A stretch of 64,000 bases of DNA from Candidatus Rifleibacterium amylolyticum. GTDB lineage: Bacteria; Muiribacteriota; Ozemobacteria; Ozemobacterales; Ozemobacteraceae. The notes under the pieces are model-generated. The model saw only the letters and a program-made list of their open reading frames with translations, did no database searches and was not told where the DNA came from. Positions within the stretch are counted from its first letter, which is position 1, and each line of letters opens with the position of its first letter. Below are positions 8,144-48,508 of this stretch, in pieces. Both the position numbers and the translations under genes were made by a program. The DNA lies in contig JAACJG010000001.1 in NCBI GenBank assembly GCA_009917695.1, forward strand, positions 143,219-207,218, given 5' to 3'.

Positions 8144-8506
8144 TCAGCGCAGTGCCTTTTGCACAGCTTCTATAACACGGTTTGGCTGGAATGGTTTGAC
8201 GATGAAGTCGCGGGCTCCCGCCTGAATAGCGTCGATAACCATGGCCTGCTGGCCCATGGCGCTGCACATTATGATCCTGGCTGCCGGGTCAAGCTTTTTA
8301 ATGGCTTTTACAGCATCGATCCCGTTCATTTCAGGCATGGTGATGTCCATGGTTACAAGGTCGGGTTTAAGCTTCTGATAAAGTTCAACCGCTTCCTTGC
8401 CAGTCTGCGCTTCGCCAAGCACCTCAAAGCCATTCTTGCTGAGAATGTCTTTGATCATCATACGCATGAAGGCTGCGTCATCTACTATAAGTATTGTTTT
8501 CCCCAT
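8144..8506 (-). CDS. cheY: CheY-like single-domain response regulator.
   Basis: The 120-aa receiver domain has the Asp pocket (IVDDAAFMR ... LVTMDITMPEMNG ... DFIVKPF). Confidence 0.8.
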   Translation of the reverse strand: MGKTILIVDDAAFMRMMIKDILSKNGFEVLGEAQTGKEAVELYQKLKPDLVTMDITMPEMNGIDAVKAIKKLDPAARIIMCSAMGQQAMVIDAIQAGARDFIVKPFQPNRVIEAVQKALR

Positions 8507-8523
8507 ACTAACCGGCAGTCTCC

Positions 8524-9870
8524 TTAGAGAGCTTGTAGTCTATCTTGTGGATTGATTATGCTGGTAATTCTGACCGCGAAGTTTTCGTCGATTACAACGA
8601 CTTCACCCTTTGCTATCAGCTTGTTATTAACAAATACCTCCACGGATTCACCCGCAAGTTTATTTAACTCTACTACAGAACCTATACCTAATTCAAGAAC
8701 ATCTTTTATTAACATACGGGTTCTGCCTAATTCAACTGTTATTTGCAGAGGAACATCAAGAAGCAGGTCAATATTCGATTGCAACCCTACTCCCATCGGC
8801 ATCTGAAGCATGCCGAATTCCGCTGGCGAACCCTGCATCATGCCTGGCATTCCCATTCCCGGCATCTGACCTGGCATTCCCATTCCCGGCATCCCCATTC
8901 CTGGCATTTGTCCTGGCATTCCCATTCCCTGCATTCCCATGCCAGACATCTGCCCTGGCATCCCCATTCCTGGCATCTGTCCCGGCATTCCCATTCCCGG
9001 CATTTGCCCTGGCATTCCCATTCCTGGCATCTGCGGTGGCATTCCCGGCATTTGCGGAGGCATCTGGCCCTGGGGTTGTCCGCCCAGCCCTGCGCCTGGC
9101 GGCGGTGGTGGCGGAGCTGCTTTTTTGGCAGATTCTTTGGGTTTGGTCAGATCTGAGGCCATGAGCTGTGCGAAGGCTGCCGGAAGCAGTTGTACCATTT
9201 CGGTTTCGGCCAGGTCGCCGATCTTGAGACTGTAGCCGATGCGCAAGAAGTTTGCGTTCTCGCTGAAGTCAGGCATCGCCGGCGGGCCGTCGTTAAAGTT
9301 GATCAGAAGAACCTCGGGTGGCGATATATCGACGCGCTTTTTGAAGTGCTCGGACAATGTGGTAGTTGTTTTACCCATCATCTGGTTCAGCATTTCGCCA
9401 ACTGCCGAAACGTGCATTTCCTGAAACTGTGCGTCAACCCCGCTGCCACCCATCATCAGGTCGCCGATCAGGGCCGAGATCGTCTTTTTAAGCAACAGAT
9501 ATGAATTTCCGTCAAAACCCTCTATGTAGGCAATCTTTGCAATGACAAATTCTTCGCCGCCTCCCTCGGAGGCAAGCTCGCCGAAGTTGACAACTCTGAT
9601 CTGCTCGAGGTCGATAGATATTTCCTTGTTCAACAGAACCTGAACAACTGAAGAGGTCGCACCAAGCGATATCTTGGCTACTTCGGCGAGCTGGTCGAGT
9701 TGTTCCTGTGAGAAGGAGGCTGCGGCAGTCGTGCCGCCAGATGATGCCGCCGGGGCAGCATGAGCTGCCGGAGCTTCAGCCGCGGGAGTATCGGCCGGAG
9801 CTTCGTCTCCGCCGCCACCGCCTGCGTTTAACAATGCATTGATTTCTTCCTGCGTCAGTATGTCACTCAC
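8524..9870 (-). CDS. fliY: Flagellar motor switch protein FliY (CheC-like domain plus FliN C-terminal domain) with a long Met/Pro/Gly-rich linker.
   Basis: The N-terminal LTQEEINALL peptide is FliM/FliY-like. A CheC-type motif is present (EMHVSAVGEMLNQMMG). The C-terminal FliN/SpoA domain reads IDLLLDVPLQITVELGRT...ELNKLAGESVEVFVNNKLIAKGEVVVIDENFAVRI. The position between cheY and fliM matches B. subtilis. Confidence 0.8.
   Translation of the reverse strand: MSDILTQEEINALLNAGGGGGDEAPADTPAAEAPAAHAAPAASSGGTTAAASFSQEQLDQLAEVAKISLGATSSVVQVLLNKEISIDLEQIRVVNFGELASEGGGEEFVIAKIAYIEGFDGNSYLLLKKTISALIGDLMMGGSGVDAQFQEMHVSAVGEMLNQMMGKTTTTLSEHFKKRVDISPPEVLLINFNDGPPAMPDFSENANFLRIGYSLKIGDLAETEMVQLLPAAFAQLMASDLTKPKESAKKAAPPPPPPGAGLGGQPQGQMPPQMPGMPPQMPGMGMPGQMPGMGMPGQMPGMGMPGQMSGMGMQGMGMPGQMPGMGMPGMGMPGQMPGMGMPGMMQGSPAEFGMLQMPMGVGLQSNIDLLLDVPLQITVELGRTRMLIKDVLELGIGSVVELNKLAGESVEVFVNNKLIAKGEVVVIDENFAVRITSIINPQDRLQAL
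8838..9078. repeat. Tandem imperfect ~27-nt repeats, about nine copies.
   Basis: The unit reads cattcccattcc(c/t)ggcatctg(a/t)cc(c/t)gg and is visible directly in the sequence. The repeats are in frame within fliY and encode (PGMGMPGQM)n. Confidence 0.7.
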
Positions 9871-10973
9871 GTCAATTCCTCCTCCTGGTCAGGGGGGTCA
9901 AAAACTTCTGTAATGGTAATGGCCATCTTTTTGCCGAGGATCCCGGGGCGGCCGCGAAACTTTACCCGGTTGCCGACCCTGATATTAAGGTCGTTCTTGA
10001 ACAACTGGTCGGTGACCATGATGTCGCCGGGTTGAAGTCCCAGGATATCCTGCAGGGTTACTATAGTGGCACCAAGCTCTGCGATCAGGGGGAGATGCAC
10101 TGATTTAACCTGCTGGCTTATCGCATCGACGTTGGTCTGGGCAGCCTCTTTGCGAACTGCAGCAAACCATGATGCGGCGTTGAATTTGTAAACAATGGAT
10201 TCGACTGTGTTATAGGGTATGCAGAGCGTCATGATACCAGTAACATCGTGAATCTTGATTTCGATCGTAATCGATACGACAATTTCACTTGGTGGAACAA
10301 TCTGCGCAAACTGAGGATTCGATTCAACCAGTTCGATCACCGGGGCCAGGTCGATAATGTTGATCCAGGCTTCGCGCAGGCGGTCGATGACGCTGACCAT
10401 AATCTTCTGCATGATCTGCTTTTCAACTTCGGTAAGCTGTCTGAGAATGCCAAGCGGCGTGCCATTGCCACCAAGAAGACGGTCGAGAATGGTGAAAACC
10501 ACATTCAGATTGATATCGATCAGTGCTTTGCCGTCGAGGTTGTCTGACCTGAATACGGTTATGAAGGTCGGGTTGTAAATTGACTGAATGAATTCTTCAA
10601 AAGTTCGCTGCTCGACCGAAACTATAGTCGCCTGCGCGTAAGCACGCAGTTTGGTGGAAAGATCGGTTCCGACCAGGCGGACAAAAGCTTCGTGAATCAG
10701 CTGTATGGTGTTGAGCTGTTCTTTGGAGAATTTAGTCTGGCGCTTGAAATCGTATTTTCGCTCGGTTCTTCCTTCTTTACGTTCGTCAGAACCGCCGCTG
10801 AACATCGATGGTGCAGCCGCAGCCGGAGCCGGGCCGGATTCTTTGGCAGGTTTTTTCTCGGCACCGCCCTCAGAAAACATGGGCGGCGGCGGTGGCGCCG
10901 AATCATCTTCTTCTGCTGGCCCCAATGCCGACAACAGGGCATCGATTTCGCTTTGCGAAAGGGTGTCTACCAT
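9867..10973 (-). CDS. fliM: Flagellar motor switch protein FliM.
   Basis: The N-terminal LSQSEIDALL motif binds CheY-P. The middle domain is CheC-like. The gene lies between fliL and fliY, and the 368 aa protein overlaps fliY by 4 nt. Confidence 0.85.
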   Translation of the reverse strand: MVDTLSQSEIDALLSALGPAEEDDSAPPPPPMFSEGGAEKKPAKESGPAPAAAAPSMFSGGSDERKEGRTERKYDFKRQTKFSKEQLNTIQLIHEAFVRLVGTDLSTKLRAYAQATIVSVEQRTFEEFIQSIYNPTFITVFRSDNLDGKALIDINLNVVFTILDRLLGGNGTPLGILRQLTEVEKQIMQKIMVSVIDRLREAWINIIDLAPVIELVESNPQFAQIVPPSEIVVSITIEIKIHDVTGIMTLCIPYNTVESIVYKFNAASWFAAVRKEAAQTNVDAISQQVKSVHLPLIAELGATIVTLQDILGLQPGDIMVTDQLFKNDLNIRVGNRVKFRGRPGILGKKMAITITEVFDPPDQEEELT

Positions 10974-11009: not shown

Positions 11010-11477
11010 TCAGTTGATCAGAAATGTCGGAATAAATACGCTGATAATACGGCTTTCAGATGTTGATTTACCGAGGATTCTGTTGAGTTCTCTTTCTATG
11101 TCCTTATGCAGAAAGCGGTCGATGTAATCTTCTTTAGCTCTCTGTATATTAAGTTTCATGAGGATATTGGTGATGCAGTCGCGCAGTTCGGCTTTGCGCT
11201 CTTCCAGTTCCTTTTCGAGATTGCCAATATAGCCGACTTCTACCTGAATCTTTATGTAATGAAGTTCTTCATCGCGAGAGGTCGCAATGAATTCGCCAAG
11301 ATCGAATCTGCCCATTTTTGGTGCGGTTTCGATGTCACCCTGCAGGGGTGGCGGTGTCTGCGCTCCGCCTGGGCCAGTTATCGCTTTTTTACTGGTAACG
11401 TACGCAATGCCGACAACTGCAAGCGCGATGATCAATACAACTAATACAACTAAAATCACTTTTGTTCTGGGTGACAT
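11010..11477 (-). CDS. fliL: Flagellar basal-body-associated protein FliL.
   Basis: The 155-aa protein has a single N-terminal TM (KVILVVLVVLIIALAVVGIAYV). Its position between flbD and fliM matches the B. subtilis order. Confidence 0.55.
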   Translation of the reverse strand: MSPRTKVILVVLVVLIIALAVVGIAYVTSKKAITGPGGAQTPPPLQGDIETAPKMGRFDLGEFIATSRDEELHYIKIQVEVGYIGNLEKELEERKAELRDCITNILMKLNIQRAKEDYIDRFLHKDIERELNRILGKSTSESRIISVFIPTFLIN

Positions 11478-11542
11478 AATTTATAAACCTACCATGAGAA
11501 AATCGGCCAAGTCAATGCACAAAACGACTTTTATGGGCATAA

Positions 11543-11776
11543 TTACAACTTCAATCCGGCGCTGGCCCCGTCAGATTTTTTCTTTACGATCCGGTGCGTA
11601 TGAATACGGCGCTTATAATTCATGATGCGGTGTAGAACTTCATGCACTGATTCTGCGACCATGACCGTTTTGCCAGTATACAGGGTGATGACAGTATCGG
11701 GAGACGACTCGATCTGTTCAATGAGTTCGGCATTCAGATAGAACTTCGCTCCATTGATGCGCGAAAGCCTGATCAT
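11543..11776 (-). CDS. flbD: Flagellar protein FlbD (SwrD).
   Basis: The roughly 70-aa protein reads MIRLSRINGAKFYLNAELIEQIESSPDTVITLYTGKTVMV, which is typical of FlbD. It lies immediately downstream of flgE. Confidence 0.65.
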   Translation of the reverse strand: MIRLSRINGAKFYLNAELIEQIESSPDTVITLYTGKTVMVAESVHEVLHRIMNYKRRIHTHRIVKKKSDGASAGLKL

Positions 11777-11797: not shown

Positions 11798-14542
11798 TTA
11801 TCGTTTCAGATTCACGACTTCCTGAAGCATTTCATCGGACGTGGTAATTACTCGCGAGTTGGCCTGAAAGGCACGCTGAGTAATGATCATGTTGGTGAAC
11901 TCTTCTGAGATATCGACGTTACTCATTTCAAGCGAAGCGGCAACTATAATGCCGCGATCCATCATGCCGGGCTTGCCGACGACCGGATGTCCGGAGTTGG
12001 GGGCGTATGAGTAGAGATTTTTGCCGTTCTTTTCCAGACCGGCAGGGTTGTTGAAGGTTGTCAGAGCCACCTGTCCGATCGGTTGTTTCTGACCGTTCGA
12101 GAACACGCCTCTGATGATACCATCTTCTTCGAAATAGATCTGTTCGAGCAGACCCATTTCGTAGCCATCTTGATTTTCAGCTTTGGTAGAGAAGTCTGAG
12201 TCGAACTGAGTTATCAGTTCCGTGGTCAGATCGATTGCCAGAGGGTTGCTTCCTTTCGGTTGCATGCCGAGTGTTGGAACATAGGAACGGCCCTGGTCGA
12301 TCTTGCCGTTTTCGAAGAAGTACATCTTTCCTTCGCGGTTGGTGATAAGTGCGTCGTTGGCGCGTTCCAGGTCTTCCTTCGTCGGATCTTCTGGATCTGT
12401 GACGTTGTTGGCCGGGTCTCGCAGCCAGTTAACGATTTCGACATCGTCATCAGAATAGCTGACCTTGTAGCTCCATTCCATGGTTTCCTTGTTGGTGTGT
12501 TCCCATGTGGTCACCAGGCCGTGTTTGCCGCCGAGCGAGTCGTAAATGATGATGTTGGTCGAATGTTTGGCGCCTTCACTGACAGCTCCATTTATTTTGA
12601 ATGTCTCACCATTAACTGTTGCCGAGAATTCGAGCATATCTGACGAAGGCTGCGGAACCATGATGTTAACCGAATCAGAACCACCCTTTTCGGCAGTCGT
12701 CACAAAGCTCATGCTTTCATTGGGCAGCCAGGGATTATTGCCCTCGGTCAGAGAGAATTCGAGGCCACCATAGTTGAATTCGCTGACCGCTGCGGTGCCG
12801 GCATAGTCGCCAGCAGCCAGGCCGAGCTGCTCATAGCCGGTGCCACTGATGATGACGCGTTCGCCAGAACCGGAGTAGTTTCCGGTTATGATTAGCTGGT
12901 CAGGGCTGCCGTTGTTGTCTGTGTCGGCAAATGAAGCTGTTGCCGCGACATTTTCCTGGGCCAGGCGCGAGTTGATCTCAGCCAGAATGGCGCCGCGGGT
13001 ATAGATCTGATTGTTACCGGCCACAATGTCGCTGAAGTTTATCAAAGCTGTGCGGCCATGGCGGTCTGTTATGGTAAGGCTGACATCGCTGGCAGGATCC
13101 CAGCGATCATTTTCGGGATCCCATTCCATACTGAATGATTGAGCTGTCAGGGTGTCGCTGAATACTTCTGGTCTCGATCCGCCAGTGCCTGAATATACTC
13201 CGGCGGGAAGATTGAGGGCATCGGTGTCGCCGACAATTTCAAGCTGACGGTTGCTGCCGATATCATTGCTGACGATCTGGAACTGCTGGGTAATCGCATC
13301 GTAATATGCAGTTGCGCGCACGCCACTGTTCTTCATCGCAGTATTGATATTATCGACAATTTCTGAGGTTGAATAGGTCACTCCTGGATCGAACGCAACC
13401 GAAGCTGTTCTCGGCGGAACAAACTGATTGTCGTTGATGTCGAAATAGGCGCCAAATGCAGGAGTCCAGTGAGTTCCGAATCCTACGGGAGTGCCCTGAA
13501 CGCGAGCCTGCTCGCCGCCAAGAGTGCCGGCTCCGATAAAGCCGCGCTCTGAGCCGACGACGCGGTAAGAAGTTGCTCTGGTCGGGTCACCACCGTCAAA
13601 GATGATCTCGACGGTTTCATTCTCGACTTCAGTACCAGATGCAGTTACGCCTGAACTGATACCATCGCCGGTGTTAGAAATAGCATTGATCGGCATGGTT
13701 GCCGTGGCCGGCCGTGGGTCGCCGTCAGGATCATAAGTGAAATAGGGTTGTGCAACCGATGAAGTCGGTCCGGCAGGTTCTACTGTGCTCTCAAGAACAT
13801 TGCCGTCGTCATCAGTCTTGATCGTGCCAGTGGCGACGTTGCCTTCGGTATCATCGATGGCCGACCAGATCCAGTTGTTGGCGTCGAGTTTCTTGAACTT
13901 GAAAGTCAGGTTCTCGAATTCCCCCTGGCTGTTCTTGAAGGTGAGTGTGTCGAGCCCGAATTCAATGTCGCGCTCGTTCGATGCACTGTCAAGGTTACAG
14001 GAATAGGTGATTGTGTTGGTCTGGTGTGCGTGCTTCTTGAGATACTTGGTAATATTGATGTCATAAGGCACGACACCGGTTTCTTTCATTTCAAGATTAC
14101 CGGTCTTGGGGTTCTGAGTGGCCAGCCAGCCCTGCATCTTGAAGCCGGTGTTGGTCATGACCATGTCGTAGTTAGGATTGATGTTGAGGTTGCCGTCGCG
14201 GGTGTAGTAGAGATTGCCGTCGTAGCCGCGAACTGAAAAGAATCCGGCGCCTTCGATGGCGATGTCGGTCTGCTTACCGGTGCCTTCGATCGCTCCCTGG
14301 TCCATCAATGTGTCGATTGCGGCTTTGCTGACACCAAGACCGACCTGCATCGGGTTGAGTCCGCCGTAGTCGCCAAAGGCCTGCTGACCGTGCCGAAGTG
14401 TTTCTGAGAAAAGATCCTGGAACATGACGCGGCCACGCTTGAATGCAGTGGTATTGACGTTCGCAATGTTGTTACTGAGAACGTCCATTTTGGTCTGATG
14501 TTGCTTTAGACCCGTAACTCCCGTGAATAATGATCTTATCAT
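11798..14542 (-). CDS. flgE: Flagellar hook protein FlgE, an unusually long form of 914 aa.
   Basis: The N-terminal rod/hook motif is present (MIRSLFTGVTGLKQHQTKMDVLSNNIANVNTTAFK). The C-terminal motif reads NVDISEEFTNMIITQRAFQANSRVITTSDEMLQEVVNLKR. A large central insertion is rich in T/S/G/D. Confidence 0.85.
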   Translation of the reverse strand: MIRSLFTGVTGLKQHQTKMDVLSNNIANVNTTAFKRGRVMFQDLFSETLRHGQQAFGDYGGLNPMQVGLGVSKAAIDTLMDQGAIEGTGKQTDIAIEGAGFFSVRGYDGNLYYTRDGNLNINPNYDMVMTNTGFKMQGWLATQNPKTGNLEMKETGVVPYDINITKYLKKHAHQTNTITYSCNLDSASNERDIEFGLDTLTFKNSQGEFENLTFKFKKLDANNWIWSAIDDTEGNVATGTIKTDDDGNVLESTVEPAGPTSSVAQPYFTYDPDGDPRPATATMPINAISNTGDGISSGVTASGTEVENETVEIIFDGGDPTRATSYRVVGSERGFIGAGTLGGEQARVQGTPVGFGTHWTPAFGAYFDINDNQFVPPRTASVAFDPGVTYSTSEIVDNINTAMKNSGVRATAYYDAITQQFQIVSNDIGSNRQLEIVGDTDALNLPAGVYSGTGGSRPEVFSDTLTAQSFSMEWDPENDRWDPASDVSLTITDRHGRTALINFSDIVAGNNQIYTRGAILAEINSRLAQENVAATASFADTDNNGSPDQLIITGNYSGSGERVIISGTGYEQLGLAAGDYAGTAAVSEFNYGGLEFSLTEGNNPWLPNESMSFVTTAEKGGSDSVNIMVPQPSSDMLEFSATVNGETFKINGAVSEGAKHSTNIIIYDSLGGKHGLVTTWEHTNKETMEWSYKVSYSDDDVEIVNWLRDPANNVTDPEDPTKEDLERANDALITNREGKMYFFENGKIDQGRSYVPTLGMQPKGSNPLAIDLTTELITQFDSDFSTKAENQDGYEMGLLEQIYFEEDGIIRGVFSNGQKQPIGQVALTTFNNPAGLEKNGKNLYSYAPNSGHPVVGKPGMMDRGIIVAASLEMSNVDISEEFTNMIITQRAFQANSRVITTSDEMLQEVVNLKR

Positions 14543-38305: not shown

Positions 38306-39895
38306 ATGAATAACACCACTGGTTACCTTTCACTGATACTGCATGCTCATCTGCCTTTTGTCCGCCATCCTGAACACGCCGACATGATGGAGGAAAGATG
38401 GCTTTTCGAAGCTATCACTGAAACTTATGTGCCCCTGATCGAGGTTTTTGGCAAGCTTTGCGATGATGAGATTGATTTTCGCATCACCATGACGCTGACA
38501 CCGCCTCTGGTGAACATGCTTGCTGACGACCTGCTGATTGCCCGCTATTCACGACACCTCGCTTTACTCGAAGAACTGGCGGAAAAGGAAGTCGAGCGCA
38601 CTCGCTGGATGCCACAGTTTCATGCTTCGGCGCTGATGTACCGCGATAAGTTTCAGCGTATTCGCAAGATTTTCAACTTCTGGCAGGGCAATCTGGTCAA
38701 GGCTTTCAAAAGCTTTCAGGATGCCGGCGTGCTCGAAATCATCACCTGCTGCGCAACCCATGGTTTCCTGCCACTTATCAACGATTTCAGAGAGGCTGTG
38801 CGCGCCCAGATCGATATGGCTGTGCGTGACTATAAAAAGCATTTTGGCCGTCAGCCACGTGGTATCTGGCTGGCAGAGTGTGCCTACAACCCGGGCGATG
38901 ACGAGATCCTCAAGGAATTCGGTCTCGAATATTTTTTTACCGATACCCATGGCATTTTGTTTGCCGACCCGAGACCAACTTATGGGGTATATGCGCCGAT
39001 TGCCTGTCCGTCTGGCGTCGTCGCATTCGGTCGCGATGTCGAGAGCAGTCGACAGGTCTGGTCCGCGCATGAAGGCTATCCCGGCGATCCTGCCTATCGC
39101 GATTTTTATCGAGATATTGGCTTTGACCTTGAATTTGATTATATCAAACCTTACATTCACGAGTCCGGTCATCGATTGAATACTGGTATCAAGTATCATC
39201 GTATTACTTCGCGCGAAATAGAAGACAAAGAGCCTTACAACTATCAGGAAGCAATGGCGAGAGTTGCCGTGCATGCCGGGCATTTTCTCTGGTGCCGCGA
39301 GCGCCAGATCGAATATCTGACCGGCAACATGGAACGTAAGCCAATCGTCGTGTCGCCATACGATGCTGAGCTGTTCGGGCACTGGTGGTATGAGGGGCCG
39401 GATTTCATTCATCTGGTTCTGCGCAAAATTGCGCTCGAAAGTAAGGTCGTCCGACTTGCCACTCCCTCTGATTATCTCGATGAATACCCACGTAATCAGA
39501 AATCTACTCCGTCTTTGTCTTCATGGGGCCACAAAGGCTATAACGAAGTCTGGCTTGATGAGAGCAATGCCTGGATATACCCGCATATGCACAAGGCCTC
39601 TGAACGCATGATCGAGCTGGCAAATTCGTTCCCGGAAGCAGAAGGGCTGCAGTTGCGTGCTCTCAATCAGGCTGCCCGCGAACTCATGCTGCTGCAATCT
39701 TCTGACTGGGCCTTCATCATGAAGACCGGTACTACGGTAGAATACGCGCACAAACGCACTAAAGATCATGTATTCAGATTTACCAGGCTTTATGGTGACA
39801 TCAGAAACGGCAGCATAAACGAGAACTGGCTGCGTGAGGTCGAACGCCGTGACAATATTTTTCCCGAGATGGATTACCGTATTTATCGCAGCTGA
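38306..39895 (+). CDS. Glycoside hydrolase family 57 protein (1,4-alpha-glucan branching enzyme type, DUF1957-containing).
   Basis: The N-terminal catalytic region is characteristic of GH57 (GYLSLILHAHLPFVRHPEHADMMEERWLFEAITETYVPLIEVF...TLTPPLVNMLAD). The 529 aa length is typical for GH57 branching enzymes. Confidence 0.7.
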   Translation: MNNTTGYLSLILHAHLPFVRHPEHADMMEERWLFEAITETYVPLIEVFGKLCDDEIDFRITMTLTPPLVNMLADDLLIARYSRHLALLEELAEKEVERTRWMPQFHASALMYRDKFQRIRKIFNFWQGNLVKAFKSFQDAGVLEIITCCATHGFLPLINDFREAVRAQIDMAVRDYKKHFGRQPRGIWLAECAYNPGDDEILKEFGLEYFFTDTHGILFADPRPTYGVYAPIACPSGVVAFGRDVESSRQVWSAHEGYPGDPAYRDFYRDIGFDLEFDYIKPYIHESGHRLNTGIKYHRITSREIEDKEPYNYQEAMARVAVHAGHFLWCRERQIEYLTGNMERKPIVVSPYDAELFGHWWYEGPDFIHLVLRKIALESKVVRLATPSDYLDEYPRNQKSTPSLSSWGHKGYNEVWLDESNAWIYPHMHKASERMIELANSFPEAEGLQLRALNQAARELMLLQSSDWAFIMKTGTTVEYAHKRTKDHVFRFTRLYGDIRNGSINENWLREVERRDNIFPEMDYRIYRS

Positions 39896-39907: not shown

Positions 39908-42853
39908 ATGAGCAAGTCAGGTTTTTATGCTGCCATAAAATCAGTTTTTATTGCTTCTTCAAGCTCAAAGGCACAGGAAACTGTGCGAACAGGCCTGATT
40001 TTCGGCTTCATAATTGCATCCTTATCGCTTTTGCTCCTGATGACGGGTGTTTACAACGAAGTCGACACCTATGTTAATACCATGGTCATGCAGATGGCCA
40101 TTGAAGACAAAGAAGAGATGCATCCACGAATATGCATAGTAAAAAAGGATCAGGCTACTTCAGAGCTGCTTGAAAAAAATCCAGATCGTGCCGAGTTTGC
40201 TTCGTTGTTCAGGTTTCTTGGCCAGCCCCAGATAATCCAGCGGCCACATGGCGGAGCCGGAAGAGGCCTTCGTGTGCTTGACATCGGCATTGGTTGTTTC
40301 ACCGACCTCAAGGACCTCCCCTTTAAAACAGGTTATGACGAGTGGGGTTCGTTTGCCGATTTTTCAGATCAGGCTTCGGCTACTCATATCGAGAAATTCG
40401 ATCAGCGCAACTGGCATTCCAGCAGCCGCCGGGTGCGCGATTATTTTAAGGCGAACCCTGATGCAGAAACTTTCTCTGGCTTGATCCAGGTCCGCAGCTA
40501 TCTATGGAACCCGCTTGCCAAAAATGCCTTTACAGCATTGGCTGGTGGTGGCCAGTATCTGGTTCTACCAACTTTGGCTACGCGCTGGGATGATCCTGAG
40601 CTGAAAAAATACCTGCAGAATTTAAGCGACAAAAATAACAGTACGGACAATGCGCCGCCTGCAGGCATTGCTGAAAGTATCGAGCTGCTTAACCGTTGGC
40701 AGAATCTATTTGACAATCTAAATCGCATCGATGTTGATCTTCACATTGTGATGTTTGAAAAGCCTGGAGTTTTGCTCAGCATTTCTCTGGACCTGGTGGT
40801 TGACCCGCCAACTCCAGAGTATATTATCGAGCCTGCTTCTGTTATTGGCTTCGACTTTGTCCTCCAGGGCGAGAAGTCTGACGCCGTAGACAATGCACTG
40901 GTTGCTGCGATTGAATCAACTGAAAGTCAGGTGGTTCTGGCGGCTCATACCGCACTGGAAGAAGATGCGAGAGATTATTCGCAGGAAAGCAAAACTGGTG
41001 ATGACGCCTTTGCCCTTGGTAGAAAAGCTTCTGCGGTTATGCGCCATATCATGCCACATGAGAAGTTTATCAAAGGCAACGCCATGACGGCTGTCATCGA
41101 CATTGCACTTGGCAGCAAGAGCTTTGTCACCATGGTGCCGATGTTTATTGCCAATCATCAGGAAAAACGGCTTATACCTTCATTCAGTCTCAAGATTGCG
41201 ATGCTCGAACTCGACCGATGTCACCCAGAGCTCAAGCCATCTTATAGCGAAGAGATGAACAGAGTACTCGCGGCGATATATGACGACGTTGCTTCAGGCA
41301 AGTTTCGTGGACCTCTGACAATTCACGATCGCAGTATCCCGGTTGACAGTCGTGGCATGATGCTTATTGACTTCTACGGTTCTACTTCTGTCGGTCGCTA
41401 CAGATGGCCCCGCATCGGATCAGTTTCTCTGTATGAATGTCTGGATGAGAAAACACTCAGACGCCTGTTAAAGAAGATGCCCGAGAAAAACGAGCTCGAT
41501 CCAATCAAGGCGCATTCCAGAACTCTTTACGGAGGCATGAACAGCTTCAATAAATCTGAACGTATAATGCTGGTCGGCCCTTTTGAAATCACCGATTTCG
41601 ACTATTTCCCGACTCCCATGGAGCTGTATACCCCCTATAGAGCGCAGAAAGAACAGTTGATGGGTATTGAAATTCATGCCAACGCCATCATCAATATCCT
41701 TGATAAGCTTTATATAAAACATCCAAATGGTTATCACACGGCTTTTGCTCTCTTCGTATCCTGTATTCTTCTCGGTTTCATTCTCGACATTCTGACGCCA
41801 GTCGCCGGCTTCTTTCTTGTCGTTGCTTTCATGGGCGGCGCTTTCTGGCATTCATTCAACTCCTATCATTATGCGCGCCAGATGTTTAACAGCTCGGCTC
41901 TGCTGTTCAGCTACCCGGCCATCTGGGCGATCGCGACCCTGACCAACTACGTGCGCCAGCGCGCCCGCGCCCAGAAGACCAAAGACATGTTTTCGCGCTT
42001 CGTCGCGGCTGACGTCGTGCAATACATGCTCGACAACCCCGACATGGTTAAGCCGGGCGGAGAAAAGGTCGAGTTGACCATTTTCTTCTCTGACGTCGCC
42101 GGTTTTACTTCGATTTCTGAGGCTCTGACCCCTGAAGAACTCGTCGTTCTTCTTAATGAATATCTCGGCGCCATGACCGATCTGCTCTTCGAATACGGGG
42201 GCACCCTCGACAAATTCATCGGCGACGCAGTAATGGCCTTCTGGAACTTTCCGCGCAAACAGGAAGATCACGCGGTTCGCGCTTGTCTATGTGCTCTGGC
42301 CATGCAGCGCAAGATCAACGAGCTGCAGATCGGCTGGGCGGAAAGAGGCCTGCCGCGGGTTTCTGCACGTGCCGGCCTGAATACGGCAAACGTGGTTGTC
42401 GGCTATATGGGTTCTTCAAAGGCGCAGATGAACTTCACCTGTATGGGCGATGGCGTCAATCTCGCCTCCCGTCTTGAAGGCGCCAACAAAGAATACGGCA
42501 CGGCAATGATGGTGAGTGACGCTACTTTCCAGAGGGCAAAACATGCGGTTGTCGGCCGATTTCTCGATTTTCTTGCCGTCAAAGGAAAAAAGGAACCGGT
42601 CAAGGTGCACGAGCTTGTTTGCGAAGTCGGCAAAGAACCGCCGGGCTGGAACGAGCTGATCGAACTTTACAATCGCGCGATTCAGCTGCATCTCGAACGC
42701 AAATGGGATGAAGCCATCGCGACCTTCGAACAGATTCTCGCGCGCTGGCCGGATGATGGGCCCAGTCGCACCTATATTGCGCGCTGCAACGAGTACAAAG
42801 AGAACCCGCCCCCCGAAGGATGGGACGGCAGGTATATCCTTACCCACAAATAA
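39908..42853 (+). CDS. CHASE2-sensor class III adenylate/guanylate cyclase with a C-terminal TPR-like segment.
   Basis: An N-terminal TM is followed by a large extracytoplasmic CHASE2-like domain. Three TM helices span residues about 600-680. The CYC catalytic core reads VELTIFFSDVAGFTSISEALTPEELVVLLNEYLGAMTDLLFEYGGTLDKFIGDAVMAFWNFP...GLNTANVVVGYMGS...NFTCMGDGVNLASRLE. Confidence 0.8.
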   Translation: MSKSGFYAAIKSVFIASSSSKAQETVRTGLIFGFIIASLSLLLLMTGVYNEVDTYVNTMVMQMAIEDKEEMHPRICIVKKDQATSELLEKNPDRAEFASLFRFLGQPQIIQRPHGGAGRGLRVLDIGIGCFTDLKDLPFKTGYDEWGSFADFSDQASATHIEKFDQRNWHSSSRRVRDYFKANPDAETFSGLIQVRSYLWNPLAKNAFTALAGGGQYLVLPTLATRWDDPELKKYLQNLSDKNNSTDNAPPAGIAESIELLNRWQNLFDNLNRIDVDLHIVMFEKPGVLLSISLDLVVDPPTPEYIIEPASVIGFDFVLQGEKSDAVDNALVAAIESTESQVVLAAHTALEEDARDYSQESKTGDDAFALGRKASAVMRHIMPHEKFIKGNAMTAVIDIALGSKSFVTMVPMFIANHQEKRLIPSFSLKIAMLELDRCHPELKPSYSEEMNRVLAAIYDDVASGKFRGPLTIHDRSIPVDSRGMMLIDFYGSTSVGRYRWPRIGSVSLYECLDEKTLRRLLKKMPEKNELDPIKAHSRTLYGGMNSFNKSERIMLVGPFEITDFDYFPTPMELYTPYRAQKEQLMGIEIHANAIINILDKLYIKHPNGYHTAFALFVSCILLGFILDILTPVAGFFLVVAFMGGAFWHSFNSYHYARQMFNSSALLFSYPAIWAIATLTNYVRQRARAQKTKDMFSRFVAADVVQYMLDNPDMVKPGGEKVELTIFFSDVAGFTSISEALTPEELVVLLNEYLGAMTDLLFEYGGTLDKFIGDAVMAFWNFPRKQEDHAVRACLCALAMQRKINELQIGWAERGLPRVSARAGLNTANVVVGYMGSSKAQMNFTCMGDGVNLASRLEGANKEYGTAMMVSDATFQRAKHAVVGRFLDFLAVKGKKEPVKVHELVCEVGKEPPGWNELIELYNRAIQLHLERKWDEAIATFEQILARWPDDGPSRTYIARCNEYKENPPPEGWDGRYILTHK

Positions 42854-44528: not shown

Positions 44529-46475
44529 TTGAAACGTATTACCAGTTTGTTTGTCGTTCTTTGTCTGCTCGGCTCTGGCGCCGCTTTTGCCGCTGGAGTG
44601 TCTGTAAGCACTGCGCGTGGTTATTCAACCACTCTGACCATCGATTGTCCCAAAGTTGAATTGACCGAAGCCCAGGTTCTCGGCGCCAAAGCCTATATGG
44701 TTACCGCTCCCGAAGCTTCTCTCTCTTCTGACAAAGATGCTCCGACCCTTCCGGTCTATACCGCAATGGTAATGGTAGACCCGGTGCGCCGCCCGGTTTT
44801 CCAGGTCAACAGCCTCGAATCCGAAATCATCGAAATCGATGCGCGTGTAATGCCCAGCAAAGGCAACTTTACCCGCAACATCAACCCCGCTGATGTTCCT
44901 TTCAACTTCGGCCCGGCTTATGAAGCCAATACCTGGTATCCCGCTGACAAAGACCTCGTCAAAATGGGCGAACCTTTCATCTTCCGCGATATCCGCGGTG
45001 TTAACCTGATTGTTAGCCCGGTTCAGTACAATCCCTCAACTAACAAGCTCAGAATCCACAAGAAGATACAGGTTTCCATCAACGCTGACGAAAAAGCTTC
45101 TAAAAACACCATGAAGAAGTCAAACCCGATCAGCAAAGTTTTCGAACCTATCTACAAGAATACTTTCGTTAACTACAAAGAAGCCGCTCGCCGCCTGCCC
45201 CGCCTCGACGAAAATGGCCGCCTGCTCATCATCTGCTACGACGATTTCATGAACGCCATGAAACCCTTCGTAGACTGGAAGAAGAAAATCGGTATCAACG
45301 TTAAACTCGTTCCGCTCAGCGAAGTTGGCAAGACCAACACTGAAGTCCAGACTTTCATCACTGATGAATTCAATCAGGGTGGCCTCACTCACATCATGCT
45401 GGTTGGCGATGCTGAACAGATCCCGACCAACAAGGGCGTTAAAGAACGCGCCGACTCTGACCCCTGCTACGTAAAACTCGCCGGTGACGATCATGTTCCG
45501 GATGCAATCATCAGCCGTCTGTCAGCCACCACTGAAAAAGACGTAGCCTATCAGGTTGCCAAGTTCATCAACTATGAACGTTTTCCGACCGAAGACAAAG
45601 CCTGGTATACCAGAGCTCTCGGTATCGGTTCTAACGAAGGTAACCCGACCGACAAGGCTTACATCGAAGAAATCCGCCAGGTTCTTCTTGGCAAAATGTT
45701 CACCGAAATCGCTACTGCCTATGACCCGGGCGCAACTGCCGCTATGGTCACTGAAGCCGTTAACAAGGGTCTCAGCCTGATCAACTATCTTGGCCATGGC
45801 TCCGGCACCAGCTGGGGTACTACCCGCTTCAACAACACCAATGCCAGCCAGCTCAAAAATGGTTGGATGATGCCGGTAATCTGGGACGTCGCCTGTGTTA
45901 ACGGTCGCTTCGTTAACTACACCGGTTTCGGCGAAGCCTGGATGCGCTCAGGTAACATCGAAGCTCCGGCCGGCGCCGTTTCTTATGCCGGCGCGACCAC
46001 CAACATGGAATGGGTTCCCCCGATCCACGTTCAGGCCGAATTCAACAAGAACTACATCGCCAATGAAGTATACAAGACCACCGGTGGTATCTTCATCAAC
46101 GGTATCATGAAGGGTCTTGAACTCTACACCACTGACCCCAAGAAATCTGGCGTCATGATGCTCGAGCAGTGGCACCTCTTCGGCGATGGCACTACTCTGG
46201 TTCGCTTCAAGGCCCCGACCAAAGTTAAGGCTGAAAACCGCGCTACCCGCAATGGTGATGCCGTAACTGTAAAAGTTAACGTTGTCGATGAAGAAGGCAA
46301 GCCCGTAAGCAACGCCCGCGTTACCGTTTACACTGAAGGCGTCGAAAACATTCGCGTCGCTACCACCAATGACGAAGGTGAAGCTGTTGTGACCATGGAA
46401 AACATGACCGCCGGTTATGTTACCATCATCCACTCAGACATCGTTCCGGTTGTAGACGAGCCAATCGTTTTCTGA
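44529..46475 (+). CDS. Secreted peptidase C25 (gingipain-like cysteine protease) family protein with a C-terminal Ig/CARDB-like domain.
   Basis: The signal peptide reads KRITSLFVVLCLLGSGAAFAAG. A C25-like catalytic region is present, with the His motif INYLGHGSGTSWG and the Cys motif WDVACVNGRF. The C-terminal 90 aa forms a beta-domain. The start is TTG with a canonical SD. Confidence 0.6.
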   Translation: MKRITSLFVVLCLLGSGAAFAAGVSVSTARGYSTTLTIDCPKVELTEAQVLGAKAYMVTAPEASLSSDKDAPTLPVYTAMVMVDPVRRPVFQVNSLESEIIEIDARVMPSKGNFTRNINPADVPFNFGPAYEANTWYPADKDLVKMGEPFIFRDIRGVNLIVSPVQYNPSTNKLRIHKKIQVSINADEKASKNTMKKSNPISKVFEPIYKNTFVNYKEAARRLPRLDENGRLLIICYDDFMNAMKPFVDWKKKIGINVKLVPLSEVGKTNTEVQTFITDEFNQGGLTHIMLVGDAEQIPTNKGVKERADSDPCYVKLAGDDHVPDAIISRLSATTEKDVAYQVAKFINYERFPTEDKAWYTRALGIGSNEGNPTDKAYIEEIRQVLLGKMFTEIATAYDPGATAAMVTEAVNKGLSLINYLGHGSGTSWGTTRFNNTNASQLKNGWMMPVIWDVACVNGRFVNYTGFGEAWMRSGNIEAPAGAVSYAGATTNMEWVPPIHVQAEFNKNYIANEVYKTTGGIFINGIMKGLELYTTDPKKSGVMMLEQWHLFGDGTTLVRFKAPTKVKAENRATRNGDAVTVKVNVVDEEGKPVSNARVTVYTEGVENIRVATTNDEGEAVVTMENMTAGYVTIIHSDIVPVVDEPIVF

Positions 46476-46527: not shown

Positions 46528-47087
46528 ATAGTGTGCCCGGCATGGGCGATAACTCGGCGGTGCAAGTCCGCTACAGGCTTGGCAGCAGGAACTGTTAGCC
46601 AAAGGCAAGGGTGTCCACCGTGAGGTGGAATCTGAAGGAAGCCGGAGGCAAACCCTCGGCCCGATGAACAAGAACCGTATATAAGGCACTACGTGACTGG
46701 ACGAGCTTGCTATACAAAGCAAAGTCCGATACTGCCCGAGGTCTGCGGTGTAGATACGGCGGGTATATGAGGGGAAAGTTATCGTTCTTACCCGGGGAGA
46801 TCTTGTAGTGGTCGCCGACAAGAGGGATGGTTAGACAACCCACAGCGACAGGTGGGGCAGCAATGCCCCACTGAACTACAAGAAGTCAGCAGAGGCCATA
46901 GTAACGCGGCGATGCGCGAAGGGCCGAACAATGGTTAATCTTCGATCGTATGGATGGCGTGATGACGCAACGACTGCCGAATACTGTTCCAACAGGCTAC
47001 CTCTGCAATGATACGGTGGAACCGGAAAGTAACAGAGGAGCGCATAGCGCCGTTATACCAAAAATCGAAAAAAAAATCGAAACGAAG

Positions 47088-47957
47088 ATGGGTGCAGATG
47101 CTTTGCTCGAAATGGTGCTAGACAGAAATAATCTGAATCAGGCATACAAGCGGGTGAAGCAGAATGGTGGTGGCGCTGGCATTGACGGGATGACGGTCGA
47201 TCAAATGCTGCCTTATCTGAGAGCTCACGGGAGCAGTCTGCTGGAAGAACTTGCAAGCGGAAAATACCGTCCCCAACCTGTTAAAAGAGTTGAGATTCCG
47301 AAACCAGACGGGGGAAAACGACTGCTTGGTGTACCAACGGTAATAGACCGTATGGTTCAGCAGGCAATCGTGCAGGTATTACAACCGATATTCGAGCCGA
47401 CTTTCTCTGACAGCAGTTTCGGGTTTCGTCCGAAGCGAAGTGCACAGCAGGCGATCAAGCGGGCGAAGGAATATTATGAGCGAGGATACTCCGATGTCTT
47501 AGACATTGATCTCGCCAGATATTTCGACACCGTAAACCACAACCTGCTGATCAGAATGGTCAGGGAGCATGTGAAAGACGAACGGATAATCAACCTGATA
47601 CGCAAATTCCTTCGGAGTGGCGTTCTGGCTGGTGGTCTCGTAAGTCCGACAGAGGAAGGAACCCCGCAAGGTGGCAATCTTTCTCCGTTGCTCAGCAATA
47701 TTTACCTCACGAGCTTTGACAGACTTCTGGAAAGCAGAAATCATCGGTTCGTGAGGTATGCGGATGACTGCAATATCTATGTCAAAAGTCGTAGAGCTGC
47801 TGCCAGAGTGATGGCCGGATGTGTCAAATTCCTCGAAGGAAAGCTTAAACTCAAGGTTAATCGTGAAAAGAGCCGTGTCGGAAGCCCGCTAAAGCTGAAA
47901 TTTCTTGGTTTCTCACTGTATAAAAGGCAAGAAAACAGGAATAAGACCACATCATAA
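47088..47957 (+). CDS. Group II intron-encoded protein, reverse-transcriptase domains (fragment 1 of a frameshifted ORF).
   Basis: RT0/RT1 reads LNQAYKRVKQNGGGAGIDGMTVDQ. RT3/4 reads LDIDLARYFDTVNHNLL. RT5 reads FVRYADDCNIYVKS (YADD). The track ORF begins at ATG 46950, and the typical IEP start MGADALLEMVL is at 47088. Confidence 0.75.
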   Translation: MGADALLEMVLDRNNLNQAYKRVKQNGGGAGIDGMTVDQMLPYLRAHGSSLLEELASGKYRPQPVKRVEIPKPDGGKRLLGVPTVIDRMVQQAIVQVLQPIFEPTFSDSSFGFRPKRSAQQAIKRAKEYYERGYSDVLDIDLARYFDTVNHNLLIRMVREHVKDERIINLIRKFLRSGVLAGGLVSPTEEGTPQGGNLSPLLSNIYLTSFDRLLESRNHRFVRYADDCNIYVKSRRAAARVMAGCVKFLEGKLKLKVNREKSRVGSPLKLKFLGFSLYKRQENRNKTTS

Positions 47958-48363
47958 GCCCCTTGAGACCTTCAAAAATAGGGTTAGAATGATTACCAGT
48001 CGCAGAAGAGGAAGATCGGTCAGTCAGATTCTACAGGAAACAAAAGTTTTCACCACAGGCTGGCTGGGCTACTATGCCATTGCAGATATGAGGGAGCGTA
48101 TATCCGAACTTAACGAATGGATAAGACGGAGAATACGTCAGTATACATGGAAGCAATGGAAGAAGATCAGCGCGAAATTCCGAAATCTGAAGCAGCTTGG
48201 GATTCCTGAAGAGCGGTCATGGATGTGGGCGAATACCAGGTTGGGTTACTGGAGAACGGCTGGGAGCCCTGTGCTGACAAGGTCATTAACAAACAAATAC
48301 CTCGTATCTATCGGATATGAAGACATATCAGTAAGATACGAGGCATTGCATCAAAACCATTGA
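47905..48363 (+). CDS. Group II intron-encoded protein, thumb/X maturase domain (fragment 2, in a +1 frame relative to the RT part). No endonuclease domain is present.
   Basis: The X-domain reads GWLGYYAIADMRERISELNEWIRRRIRQYTWKQWKK...RLGYWRTAGSPVLTRSLTNKYLVSIGY. It ends 1 nt before domain V. The frames switch within 47908..47925, which contains an A4 run. An IEP that lacks the endonuclease domain is typical of class C introns. Confidence 0.65.
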   Translation: MVSHCIKGKKTGIRPHHKPLETFKNRVRMITSRRRGRSVSQILQETKVFTTGWLGYYAIADMRERISELNEWIRRRIRQYTWKQWKKISAKFRNLKQLGIPEERSWMWANTRLGYWRTAGSPVLTRSLTNKYLVSIGYEDISVRYEALHQNH

Positions 48364-48508
48364 ACCGCCGTATACCGAACGGTACGTACGGTGGGGTGAG
48401 AGGACAATGGGTGAAATAATCACCCATTTCCTACTCGATTGCTCGCGTTTTGTCTCTTCTTAGCTTCAGCGAAACAGAGCAGGCGTGTTTGTTTTTCTTG
48501 CGTAATCT

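Follow-up and report, generated by a model that had tools for sequence, protein, structure and literature searches.

The closest described relatives of the protein considered here are the FliY proteins of Thermotoga maritima and Bacillus subtilis (structures 4HYN and 1YAB/1O6A), in which an EIDAL-type N-terminal peptide is followed by a CheC/FliM-like domain, a variable linker and a FliN/SpoA domain, and whose gene lies between fliM and cheY. The middle domains of B. subtilis FliY have been proposed to form an extra ring by the ring of FliM middle domains, with the C-terminal domains located at the base (PMC7355467), and in this protein the SPP sequence of the second active-site motif is a pause site that depends on elongation factor P (EF-P) (PMC6613710). 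The window analysed here, a stretch of 64,000 nucleotides (nt) from the uncultured anaerobe Candidatus Rifleibacterium amylolyticum (GCA_009917695.1, contig JAACJG010000001.1, positions 143,219 to 207,218), carries a fliY gene in the same operon place, encoding the same succession of domains and the conserved SPP. It differs in its linker, which is longer and consists of about one quarter to one third methionine (Met): linkers comprise 112-147 amino acids (aa) in two species representatives of the Riflebacteria as against a median of ~79 aa in Bacillales, and typical FliY linkers are rich in P, Q, A and E with a median Met content of 2-3%. The first CheC-type motif is moreover degenerate, with K66 where Asn is expected. 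We favour, with moderate confidence, the reading that this linker is a selected, disordered and uncharged tether, probably cohesive or elastic, whose composition is constrained while its length is only loosely so.

Similar peptides are known from other systems. Some Lachnospiraceae have a Met-rich low-complexity linker between the same two FliY domains, and one of their genes (L007) also shares a bias towards GGA codons, but the units differ (QPMMG, MPQMG, MGMNPQ, MDMSGM), Pro and Gly are less frequent and the proteins form a separate clade. The nearest look-alikes of the peptide are the C-terminal tails of Ffh (the SRP54 M domain of the signal recognition particle), which carry almost the same (GMPGM)n sequence, for instance '...GMPGMPGMGMPGMGMPGM...', and one of which also carries PF02978. 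In Ffh, however, the segment is the terminal tail of a signal-peptide-binding domain and not an interdomain tether of a rotor protein; the similarity is compositional and nothing points to common descent. The (GGM)n tails of GroEL/Hsp60 are likewise flexible Gly/Met segments that occur in high copy number within a large ring-shaped assembly, where they adopt partly polyproline-II conformations and contact hydrophobic clients (PMC12571646; PMC11978752); they are tails and not linkers, comprise only ~13 residues and lack Pro and Gln. In yeast Pbp1/ataxin-2 and in TDP-43, Met is cohesive within a disordered domain and the cohesion is reversibly abolished by oxidation (PMC8394241), but these are eukaryotic RNA-binding proteins with a much lower Met density and no tandem units. 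Elastin, resilin and abductin combine high Pro+Gly with hydrophobic residues, and abductin is also Met-rich (PMC5424786); in contrast to the FliY linker, likened to them by composition, they are extracellular cross-linked materials.

The open reading frame (ORF) in question was assigned to FliY by the NCBIfam equivalog model NF005995 (305.9 bits, E=5.1e-91; cutoff 218), and Pfam models matched for CheC (aa 152-188, 1.5e-8), FliMN_C (PF01052, aa 369-439, 1.9e-25) and CheX. With KAF1083365.1, a protein from a Candidatus Rifleibacterium amylolyticum metagenome-assembled genome, the protein shares 100% identity. The gene and the parts of its linker are located as follows, where the consensus refers to an alignment of 36 sequences, Bacillota included, which also served as input for AlphaFold2:

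8524..9870, minus strand: fliY coding sequence, 448 aa, with a GTG start and the stop codon at 8524-8526

8830..9135, minus strand: whole interdomain linker (aa 246-347), consisting of a Lys/Ala/Pro lead-in, a hexaproline, a Gly/Gln stretch and the Met-rich repeats

9097..9114, minus strand: hexaproline at the linker start (aa 253-258), 'PPPPxP' in the alignment consensus

8833..9063, minus strand: Met-rich repeat core (aa 270-346, 77 aa) of MPGQ and MPGMG units

Tandem Repeats Finder reported a period-27 array at 8831-9046 (7.9 copies, score 173, 75% matches, 8% indels); its additional calls of period 42 and period 69 overlap this array and describe the same repeat. The pattern ATGCCNGGNATGGGNATG was matched eight times, always at 8848-9030 on the minus strand, nowhere else in the 64 kb and not once in 100 dinucleotide-preserving shuffles. 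The array is composed of two intermixed units, MPGQ (12 nt) and MPGMG (15 nt), which together make up the 27-nt period, and reads MPPQ-MPG-MPPQ-MPGMG-(MPGQ-MPGMG)x2-MPGQ-MSGMG-MQGMG-MPGQ-MPGMG-MPGMG-MPGQ-MPGMG-MPGM-MQG. An earlier annotation of this DNA by a model without database searches, here termed the sequence-only reading, had placed a repeat between the CheC-like and FliN domains of FliY, which is borne out by NF005995, by the structural relatives of both flanks and by the detected array. Its count of about nine 27-nt units is acceptable as a length, since the 77 aa of the core correspond to ~8.6 lengths of the 9-aa unit, but the array is irregular and only six of its units are canonical. 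Similarly, the figure of more than 30% Met, given for a linker of roughly 110 aa, holds for the 77-aa core (35% Met, 30% Gly, 22% Pro and 12% Gln; P+G 52%) but not for aa 251-365, where Met accounts for 26% of 115 aa. The rest of FliY contains 3.3% Met and the long ORFs of the window 2.6%.

No structure in the PDB spans aa 246-360, and AlphaFold2 returned predicted local distance difference test (pLDDT) values of 32-49 and no secondary structure for ~aa 250-365. The linker is hence predicted by the model to be intrinsically disordered, and it is almost uncharged. A collagen-like triple helix was ruled out by inspection, Gly being absent from an every-third-position pattern.

The nucleotide repeats are not near-perfect, as had been proposed, given that the array has the 75% matches mentioned above and its 27-nt copies are 64-88% identical to the reference copy. 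The longest exact repeat measures 24 nt, compared to 23.2 nt after permutation of synonymous codons and 21.0 nt after recoding with the codon usage of the operon. Since Met has a single codon and the exact-repeat length matches the codon-permuted expectation, the DNA is no more repetitive than the peptide forces it to be. A recent amplification of the repeat is ruled out on the same grounds. The recent hypervariability implied by the sequence-only reading does not hold either.

In order to place the linker among FliY proteins, homologues were collected in an exhaustive HMMER search using only the N-terminal 250 residues as query, so that the census is unbiased by the linker. Clustering at 50% yielded 150 representatives, of which 104 contained both domains; the FliY homologues at E<=1e-10 amount to 680 representatives. 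Their linkers range from 10 to 166 aa, are always of low complexity and usually rich in P, Q, A and E. Defining as Met-rich any 30-aa window with at least 30% Met, we detected such a linker in only three of the 104 representatives. Among named species representatives taken from GTDB, a Met-rich window occurred in both Riflebacteria (2/2), in 17/26 Lachnospiraceae, in none of the 35 Bacillales and in 2/16 other Clostridia or unassigned species. The Lachnospiraceae concerned include Roseburia, Acetatifactor, Parablautia, Wujia, Konateibacter and others, with up to 47% Met, and FliY proteins without a Met-rich linker were found in Syntrophomonas, Tissierella, Phosphitispora and a member of the Oscillospiraceae. 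The view that such a spacer is unusual for FliY therefore holds for the family at large and for the Bacillales in particular, but the spacer is not unique to this locus.

Within the Riflebacteria, a first search had already shown an M/P/G/Q linker in nearly all Riflebacteria/Ozemobacteraceae matches at 50-100% identity; the few matches without a Met-rich linker were P0055, P0059 and P0060. In each of the seven Riflebacteria genes for which it was measured, the Met share of the linker or core was 24-31%, at identities of the folded N-domain between 59 and 99%. Since relatives carry the same linker, it is ancestral in this group. In a neighbour-joining tree based on the folded domains alone, the Riflebacteria formed their own long branch outside all Bacillota, while Met enrichment was spread through the Lachnospiraceae clade with the units QPMMG, MPQMG and MGMNPQ. 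Due to these separate branches and different units the two groups of linkers are best read as convergent. Horizontal transfer from Lachnospiraceae is unsupported, because the Riflebacteria branch lies outside all Bacillota. Judged from the sequences compared, the Met-rich linker is thus rare across FliY, ancestral in Riflebacteria and recurrent elsewhere.

Two further searches contributed little to the census. The 77-aa linker alone, used as a query against a set of 5.8 billion proteins, gave eight weak matches to Ffh-like tails and tiny fragments and was unusable as a census, since composition correction suppresses such queries. PF28396, which is given for many homologues, turned out to be SepQ_C, a FliN-like model, and hence does not denote a linker family. 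In the literature search no description of Met-rich FliY or FliN linkers was found, most subscription journals being outside its coverage. Among the strongest matches for the FliY middle domain, many (P0121, P0123-P0143 and others) were proteins of 500-860 aa with two to three tandem CheC-like domains plus FliN; their linkers are acidic.

The comparison with related loci indicates selection on the Met residues. The linker has changed at 61%, 38% and 50% of its 4-fold degenerate sites relative to L002, L004 and L005, respectively, while the aligned Met codons were kept in 26/26, 26/26 and 24/25 cases. The amino acid identity of the linker is similar to or above that of the folded parts (96 vs 96% for L002, 95 vs 94% for L004 and 85 vs 71% for L005). 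In this comparison Ile, Leu and Val add up to 3% of the core versus 30% for Met, and Met is not swapped for any of them; hydrophobicity alone is thus not the conserved property. These substitution patterns indicate that purifying selection acts on the linker methionines, even as the number of repeats drifts.

Such drift is apparent among close relatives, in agreement with the predicted variation of linker length between strains. The window and L001 (96-97% nucleotide identity) are one 15-nt MPGMG unit and one Ser/Pro change apart, and several unit indels separate the window from L002 to L004 (85-87% identity), the FliN domain being identical at the protein level. In five clusters of at least 90% identity every length difference corresponded to a whole in-frame unit inside the linker (453 vs 444; 457 vs 453; 464 vs 463; 437/442/447/452; 455/460/463 aa), with steps of one MPGMG (5 aa) in the 437/442/447/452 aa cluster. 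Identical lengths recur across JGI, ENA, NCBI and Logan assemblies. The gain and loss of units between close relatives suggests that the exact linker length is loosely constrained, and as all units are multiples of three bases the outcome is a length polymorphism and not an on/off phase variation. An invariant repeat number together with the same linker in relatives had been named as the sign of an ancestral and not hypervariable feature; the relatives do share the linker, which hence is ancestral, but the copy number varies. The repeat evidently also provokes sequencing or assembly errors, as P0015 and P0031 contain frame errors inside it, e.g. 'MPRYGYAGMGMP' and 'AGMGCQGRCLEWVCRNDAWNGYARADAGNGHAG'.

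A separate observation concerns the same close relatives. The identity to L002/L004 rises from ~85% to 97-100% at 8300-8800, 9840-10060 and 11400-11585, stretches that comprise the FliN domain and most of cheY, the fliM 3' end and fliY start, and the flbD/fliL junction. Within them 11-19% of the 4-fold sites are changed, as opposed to 40-46% in the rest of fliM and fliY, and the effect is gone with the more distant L005 and L006 (49-73%). Recent recombination among close lineages fits these jumps better than a constraint at the RNA level.

The linker connects the CheC-like middle domain with the FliN/SpoA domain, which forms the C-ring's base. If the FliY middle domains form an extra ring, as proposed for B. 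subtilis, and the C-terminal domains lie at the base, it must span the distance and accommodate switching. Its composition suggests a flexible and compact tether, probably self-cohesive or elastic, in which Met would act as a weak, flexible hydrophobic 'sticker' amid Pro/Gly spacers, so that the ~100 FliY middle domains per motor might be held near the ring while large switching movements are tolerated. A high Pro+Gly content plus some hydrophobicity marks elastomeric, non-amyloid proteins, the Met-rich abductin included (PMC5424786), and with 22% Pro and 30% Gly the core was put in this composition range, which follows the concept of that study without recomputing its exact threshold line. 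In GroEL, the Gly/Met tails are found partly in polyproline-II conformations and in contact with clients (PMC12571646), and Met has been described as a cohesive residue of low-complexity domains (PMC8394241).

Several points weigh against this reading. The mechanical or cohesive role is suggested by composition, and most FliY proteins use P/Q/A/E-rich linkers of 10-166 aa with almost no Met, so that FliY in general can function without a Met-rich tether. The copy numbers stem from short-read metagenome assemblies, which are able to collapse or expand repeats. The alignment of the repeats is ambiguous and favours matches, and the count of retained Met codons is therefore somewhat inflated; the constancy of the total Met content at 30-31% holds alongside. 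Finally, concerted evolution of the units could maintain the composition without selection at the residue level.

The last point is shared by the alternative that survives best, according to which length and floppiness suffice for a spacer and slippage merely amplified an arbitrary unit that happened to contain Met. The hypervariable length (10-166 aa) and composition of FliY linkers, the free gain and loss of units between close relatives and the ability of concerted evolution to keep a motif without selection are all consistent with a neutral spacer. It does not account for the retention of Met codons in 26/26, 26/26 and 24/25 cases despite 38-61% change at 4-fold sites, for the absence of replacements by Ile, Leu or Val, all reachable by a single mutation, or for the steady Met content of 24-31% in seven of seven measured Riflebacteria genes (P0055, P0059 and P0060 being without such a linker). 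Taking furthermore into account the independent origin in Lachnospiraceae and repeats that are no more alike than the peptide forces, and hence no recent amplification, a neutral spacer seems unlikely.

Riflebacteria and Lachnospiraceae are anaerobes, whereas none of the 35 Bacillales has a Met-rich linker. This distribution would fit an oxidant sensor in which the reversible oxidation of Met to its sulfoxide alters the cohesion or compaction of the linker and thereby the switching or assembly of the motor. In yeast the Met-rich domain of Pbp1 self-associates and its assemblies are melted by H2O2 in a manner reversible by methionine sulfoxide reductase (Msr) (PMC8394241), and TDP-43 behaves similarly (PMC7682574). 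The linker of the window is likewise a Met-rich, low-complexity sequence predicted to be disordered, with 35% Met in 77 aa. Two independent origins, however, leave lifestyle inseparable from phylogeny, and the anaerobic Syntrophomonas, Tissierella, Phosphitispora and Oscillospiraceae member manage without the linker. Furthermore, scans of the window covering the flagellar genes and the ORFs of 180 aa or more detected no methionine sulfoxide reductase. We consider an oxidant sensor rather improbable. Even more doubtful is its extension that the ~100 linkers per motor would cohere through methionine contacts into a condensate-like belt at the C-ring base, which Met oxidation would loosen and Msr restore, thus providing an oxidant input.

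The codon choice within the core bears on two further alternatives. Gly is encoded by GGA in 17 of 28 cases, whereas GGC and GGT prevail in the remainder of the gene and operon, and only one of the 20 Pro codons is CCC. The GGA bias recurs in L001, L002, L004 and L005 as well as in L007, one of the two Lachnospiraceae genes examined, but not in the other, L008. The predicted folding energy of the core mRNA is -83 kcal/mol compared to -137 +/- 8.6 kcal/mol for recodings with the codon usage of the operon, none of 300 of which was as weakly folded, and GCATGC palindromes are absent from the core as opposed to 5.2 in the recodings. Gly and Pro codons thus appear to be chosen in a way that keeps the C/G-flanked ATGs from forming palindromes and mRNA hairpins.

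An open mRNA of this kind would also be expected if some of the 27 in-frame ATGs served as internal translation starts for FliN-only products. A FliN-like product that starts shortly upstream of the SpoA domain, with a formyl-Met mass and a purine-rich stretch upstream, is known from fliY of T. maritima, and SctQ genes are alike (PMC4832279). The core mRNA is far less structured than its synonymous recodings, and the GGA codons place AGGA/GGGA ~6 nt before ATGs, with four Shine-Dalgarno (SD)-like 4-mers versus 0.6 expected. The anti-SD pairing, computed for every in-frame ATG, GTG and TTG, lies at -4 to -5.5 kcal/mol for the linker ATGs, a range shared in part with the least strongly pairing true starts of the operon (-4.9 to -6.2). 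Its strong starts, however, pair at -8 to -12 kcal/mol, which no ATG of the linker attains, and the best site, TTG363 (-6.8), is CTG in L002 and L004 and hence not conserved. As one start codon would be enough, 35% Met is left unexplained, and GTG and TTG, although initiators too, never replace ATG. Internal starts are therefore a very unlikely reason for the Met-rich linker.

Alternatively, hexaproline, Pro-Gly and Met codons might slow or stall ribosomes in the stretch joining the two domains and couple the output of the gene to EF-P or to the charging of Met-tRNA. Such a gauge would, speculatively, tie the output of FliY and of the downstream cheY-fliOPQR-flhBA to ribosome pausing. A single SPP in B. 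subtilis FliY makes the flagellar number EF-P dependent (PMC6613710). The FliY protein of the window keeps the homologous S183-P-P (9316-9324) and adds PPPPPP (9097-9114) and two MPPQ, so that a strong EF-P dependence is expected, and selection on ATG codons as such would explain the retention of Met equally well. The proposal remains purely speculative, though, and we know of no precedent in which a structural gene contains a Met-codon gauge. EF-P dependence would follow from the hexaproline alone, and the removal of mRNA structure through codon choice speaks for smooth and not for impeded translation. A role of this sort is accordingly highly unlikely.

The copy-number differences among near-identical relatives, taken from short-read assemblies, could suggest a contingency locus whose slippage-prone repeat toggles FliY or creates rapid diversity within a population. 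With units of 12, 15 and 27 nt, however, slippage stays in frame, as do all indels observed; the repeats are imperfect (75% matches, copies 64-88% identical, longest exact repeat 24 nt), and identical alleles recurring in independent samples indicate stable alleles instead of rapid switching. There is accordingly little to recommend a contingency locus.

MxM and MxxM are patterns of copper-handling proteins. The linker is full of fitting MGM and MPGM, and Met-rich domains recruit Cu(I) in CueO (PMC12041951), but binding of Cu(I)/Ag(I) is extremely improbable, given that known Met-rich copper sites are periplasmic or extracellular while FliY is cytoplasmic, that the linker Met residues are not accompanied by His or Asp, and that no copper-handling gene was found in the scans of the window, which took in its flagellar genes and ORFs of 180 aa or more.

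Apart from the linker, the FliY protein of the window consists of the following elements:

9823..9870, minus strand: N-terminal peptide of the type binding phosphorylated CheY (CheY-P) or FlhG (aa 1-16, MSDILTQEEINALLNA)

9136..9723, minus strand: CheC/FliM-like middle domain (aa 50-245)

9316..9408, minus strand: second CheC-type phosphatase motif, S155-x3-E159-x2-N162-x22-P185, with S183-P-P inside

8791..8829, minus strand: short conserved motif SPAEFGMLQMPMG (aa 348-360), after the repeats and before the FliN fold

8527..8775, minus strand: FliN / SpoA C-terminal domain (aa 366-448)

The N-terminal peptide reads ILTQEEINALL at aa 4-14, and its residues L5, Q7, E9, I10, A12 and L13 are invariant in the alignment of 36 sequences; AlphaFold2 places a helix at aa 7-16. 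Its binding of CheY-P/FlhG is putative, the role being carried over from the literature on FliM and FliY. The middle domain matches the one of T. maritima FliY (4HYN) over aa 54-245 (E=3.8e-28) and was modelled with pLDDT values of 87-96 over aa 50-245. S155, E159, N162 and P185 of the second phosphatase motif are invariant in the alignment. The first motif (9673-9696, aa 59-66), in contrast, has degenerated from the D/S-x3-E-x2-N-x22-P pattern to D59-x3-E63-x2-K66 without Asn and closing Pro. With the first motif degenerate and the second intact, the protein is predicted to have probably at most one active phosphatase site.

The FliN domain is related to PDB entries 1YAB/1O6A (1.1e-28) and to FliN of the Salmonella C-ring (8UMD, 1.9e-23), with PDB coverage of aa 361-447; its poor AlphaFold2 model as a monomer is attributable to the intertwined dimer that is expected. 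In the preceding motif SPAEFGMLQMPMG, which is identical in L001-L004 and has the Bacillota counterpart 'VQPxQF', F352 is invariant in all 36 aligned sequences from Riflebacteria through Bacillota. The motif is probably a binding or packing element and lies outside the flexible linker. Together with the FliN domain (aa 348-448) it shares 92-100% amino acid identity with the compared Riflebacteria loci.

A striking asymmetry of constraint was observed across the Riflebacteria. In the comparison with L005 and L006 the FliN domain of FliY (8527-8829) retains 92-97% protein identity, versus only 57-60% for the C-terminal SpoA domain of FliM (9867-10130), its presumed partner, and 59-62% for the FliY middle domain.

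The gene order on the minus strand is flgE, flbD, fliL, fliM, fliY, cheY, fliO, fliP, fliQ, fliR, flhB and flhA, followed 3' of flhA by an ORF without family assignment and a MinD/ParA-type ATPase. The fliY 5' end overlaps the fliM stop codon by 4 nt, cheY is the next gene downstream, and the synteny around fliY is unchanged in relatives. Judged from the curated model, the FliN/SpoA and CheC/FliM-like domains, the N-terminal peptide and the position between fliM and cheY, all of which were found, the gene is an ordinary FliY orthologue. A scan against Rfam gave no match to any RNA family in the fliY region. The antisense ORF at 8743-9156 (plus strand, 137 aa), which is rich in His, Ser and Arg owing to CAT (His) lying opposite ATG, looks like a by-product of the repeat, with nothing seen that would mark a gene.

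Further observations in the operon concern a 279-aa ORF (1277-2116) at the usual place of flhF, between flhA and the flhG-like MinD/ParA gene, which had no Pfam match at E<=1e-4, and a very long hook protein FlgE (11798-14542). The latter comprises 914 aa in the window, while close relatives have 915-917 aa and L005 has 1268 aa (L005 1-872), lengths that imply a large inserted domain.

Elsewhere in the window a group II intron was detected at 46614-48439 on the plus strand (RF02001 at 46614-46786 with 153 bits, RF01998 at 46849-46924 and RF00029 at 48363-48439), containing a reverse-transcriptase ORF at 46950-47957 (RVT_1, 9e-40). Two adjacent giant tetratricopeptide-repeat proteins of 1535 and 1616 aa are encoded on the minus strand at 53205-57812 and 57874-62724. 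In addition, the window encodes a C25 gingipain-like peptidase (44529-46475), a CHASE2-nucleotide cyclase (39908-42853) and a branching enzyme of glycoside hydrolase family 57 (38306-39895).

In composition, the Met-rich linker is a variant of the variable linker already known from FliY, and the established picture of the motor is unchanged unless a specific role of the linker is demonstrated. The codon data provide a clean example of selection against self-complementarity of mRNA and DNA inside a Met/Pro/Gly repeat. FliY linkers have so far been treated as featureless spacers, whereas the spacer described here is conserved at least as well as the folded domains. This points to a residue-specific role of a disordered segment of the flagellar switch, be it cohesion, elasticity or oxidant sensitivity, that would have arisen convergently in gut Lachnospiraceae. 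If the doubtful cohesive belt existed, flagellar switching or assembly in strict anaerobes, Riflebacteria and Lachnospiraceae among them, would receive a receptor-independent oxidant input.

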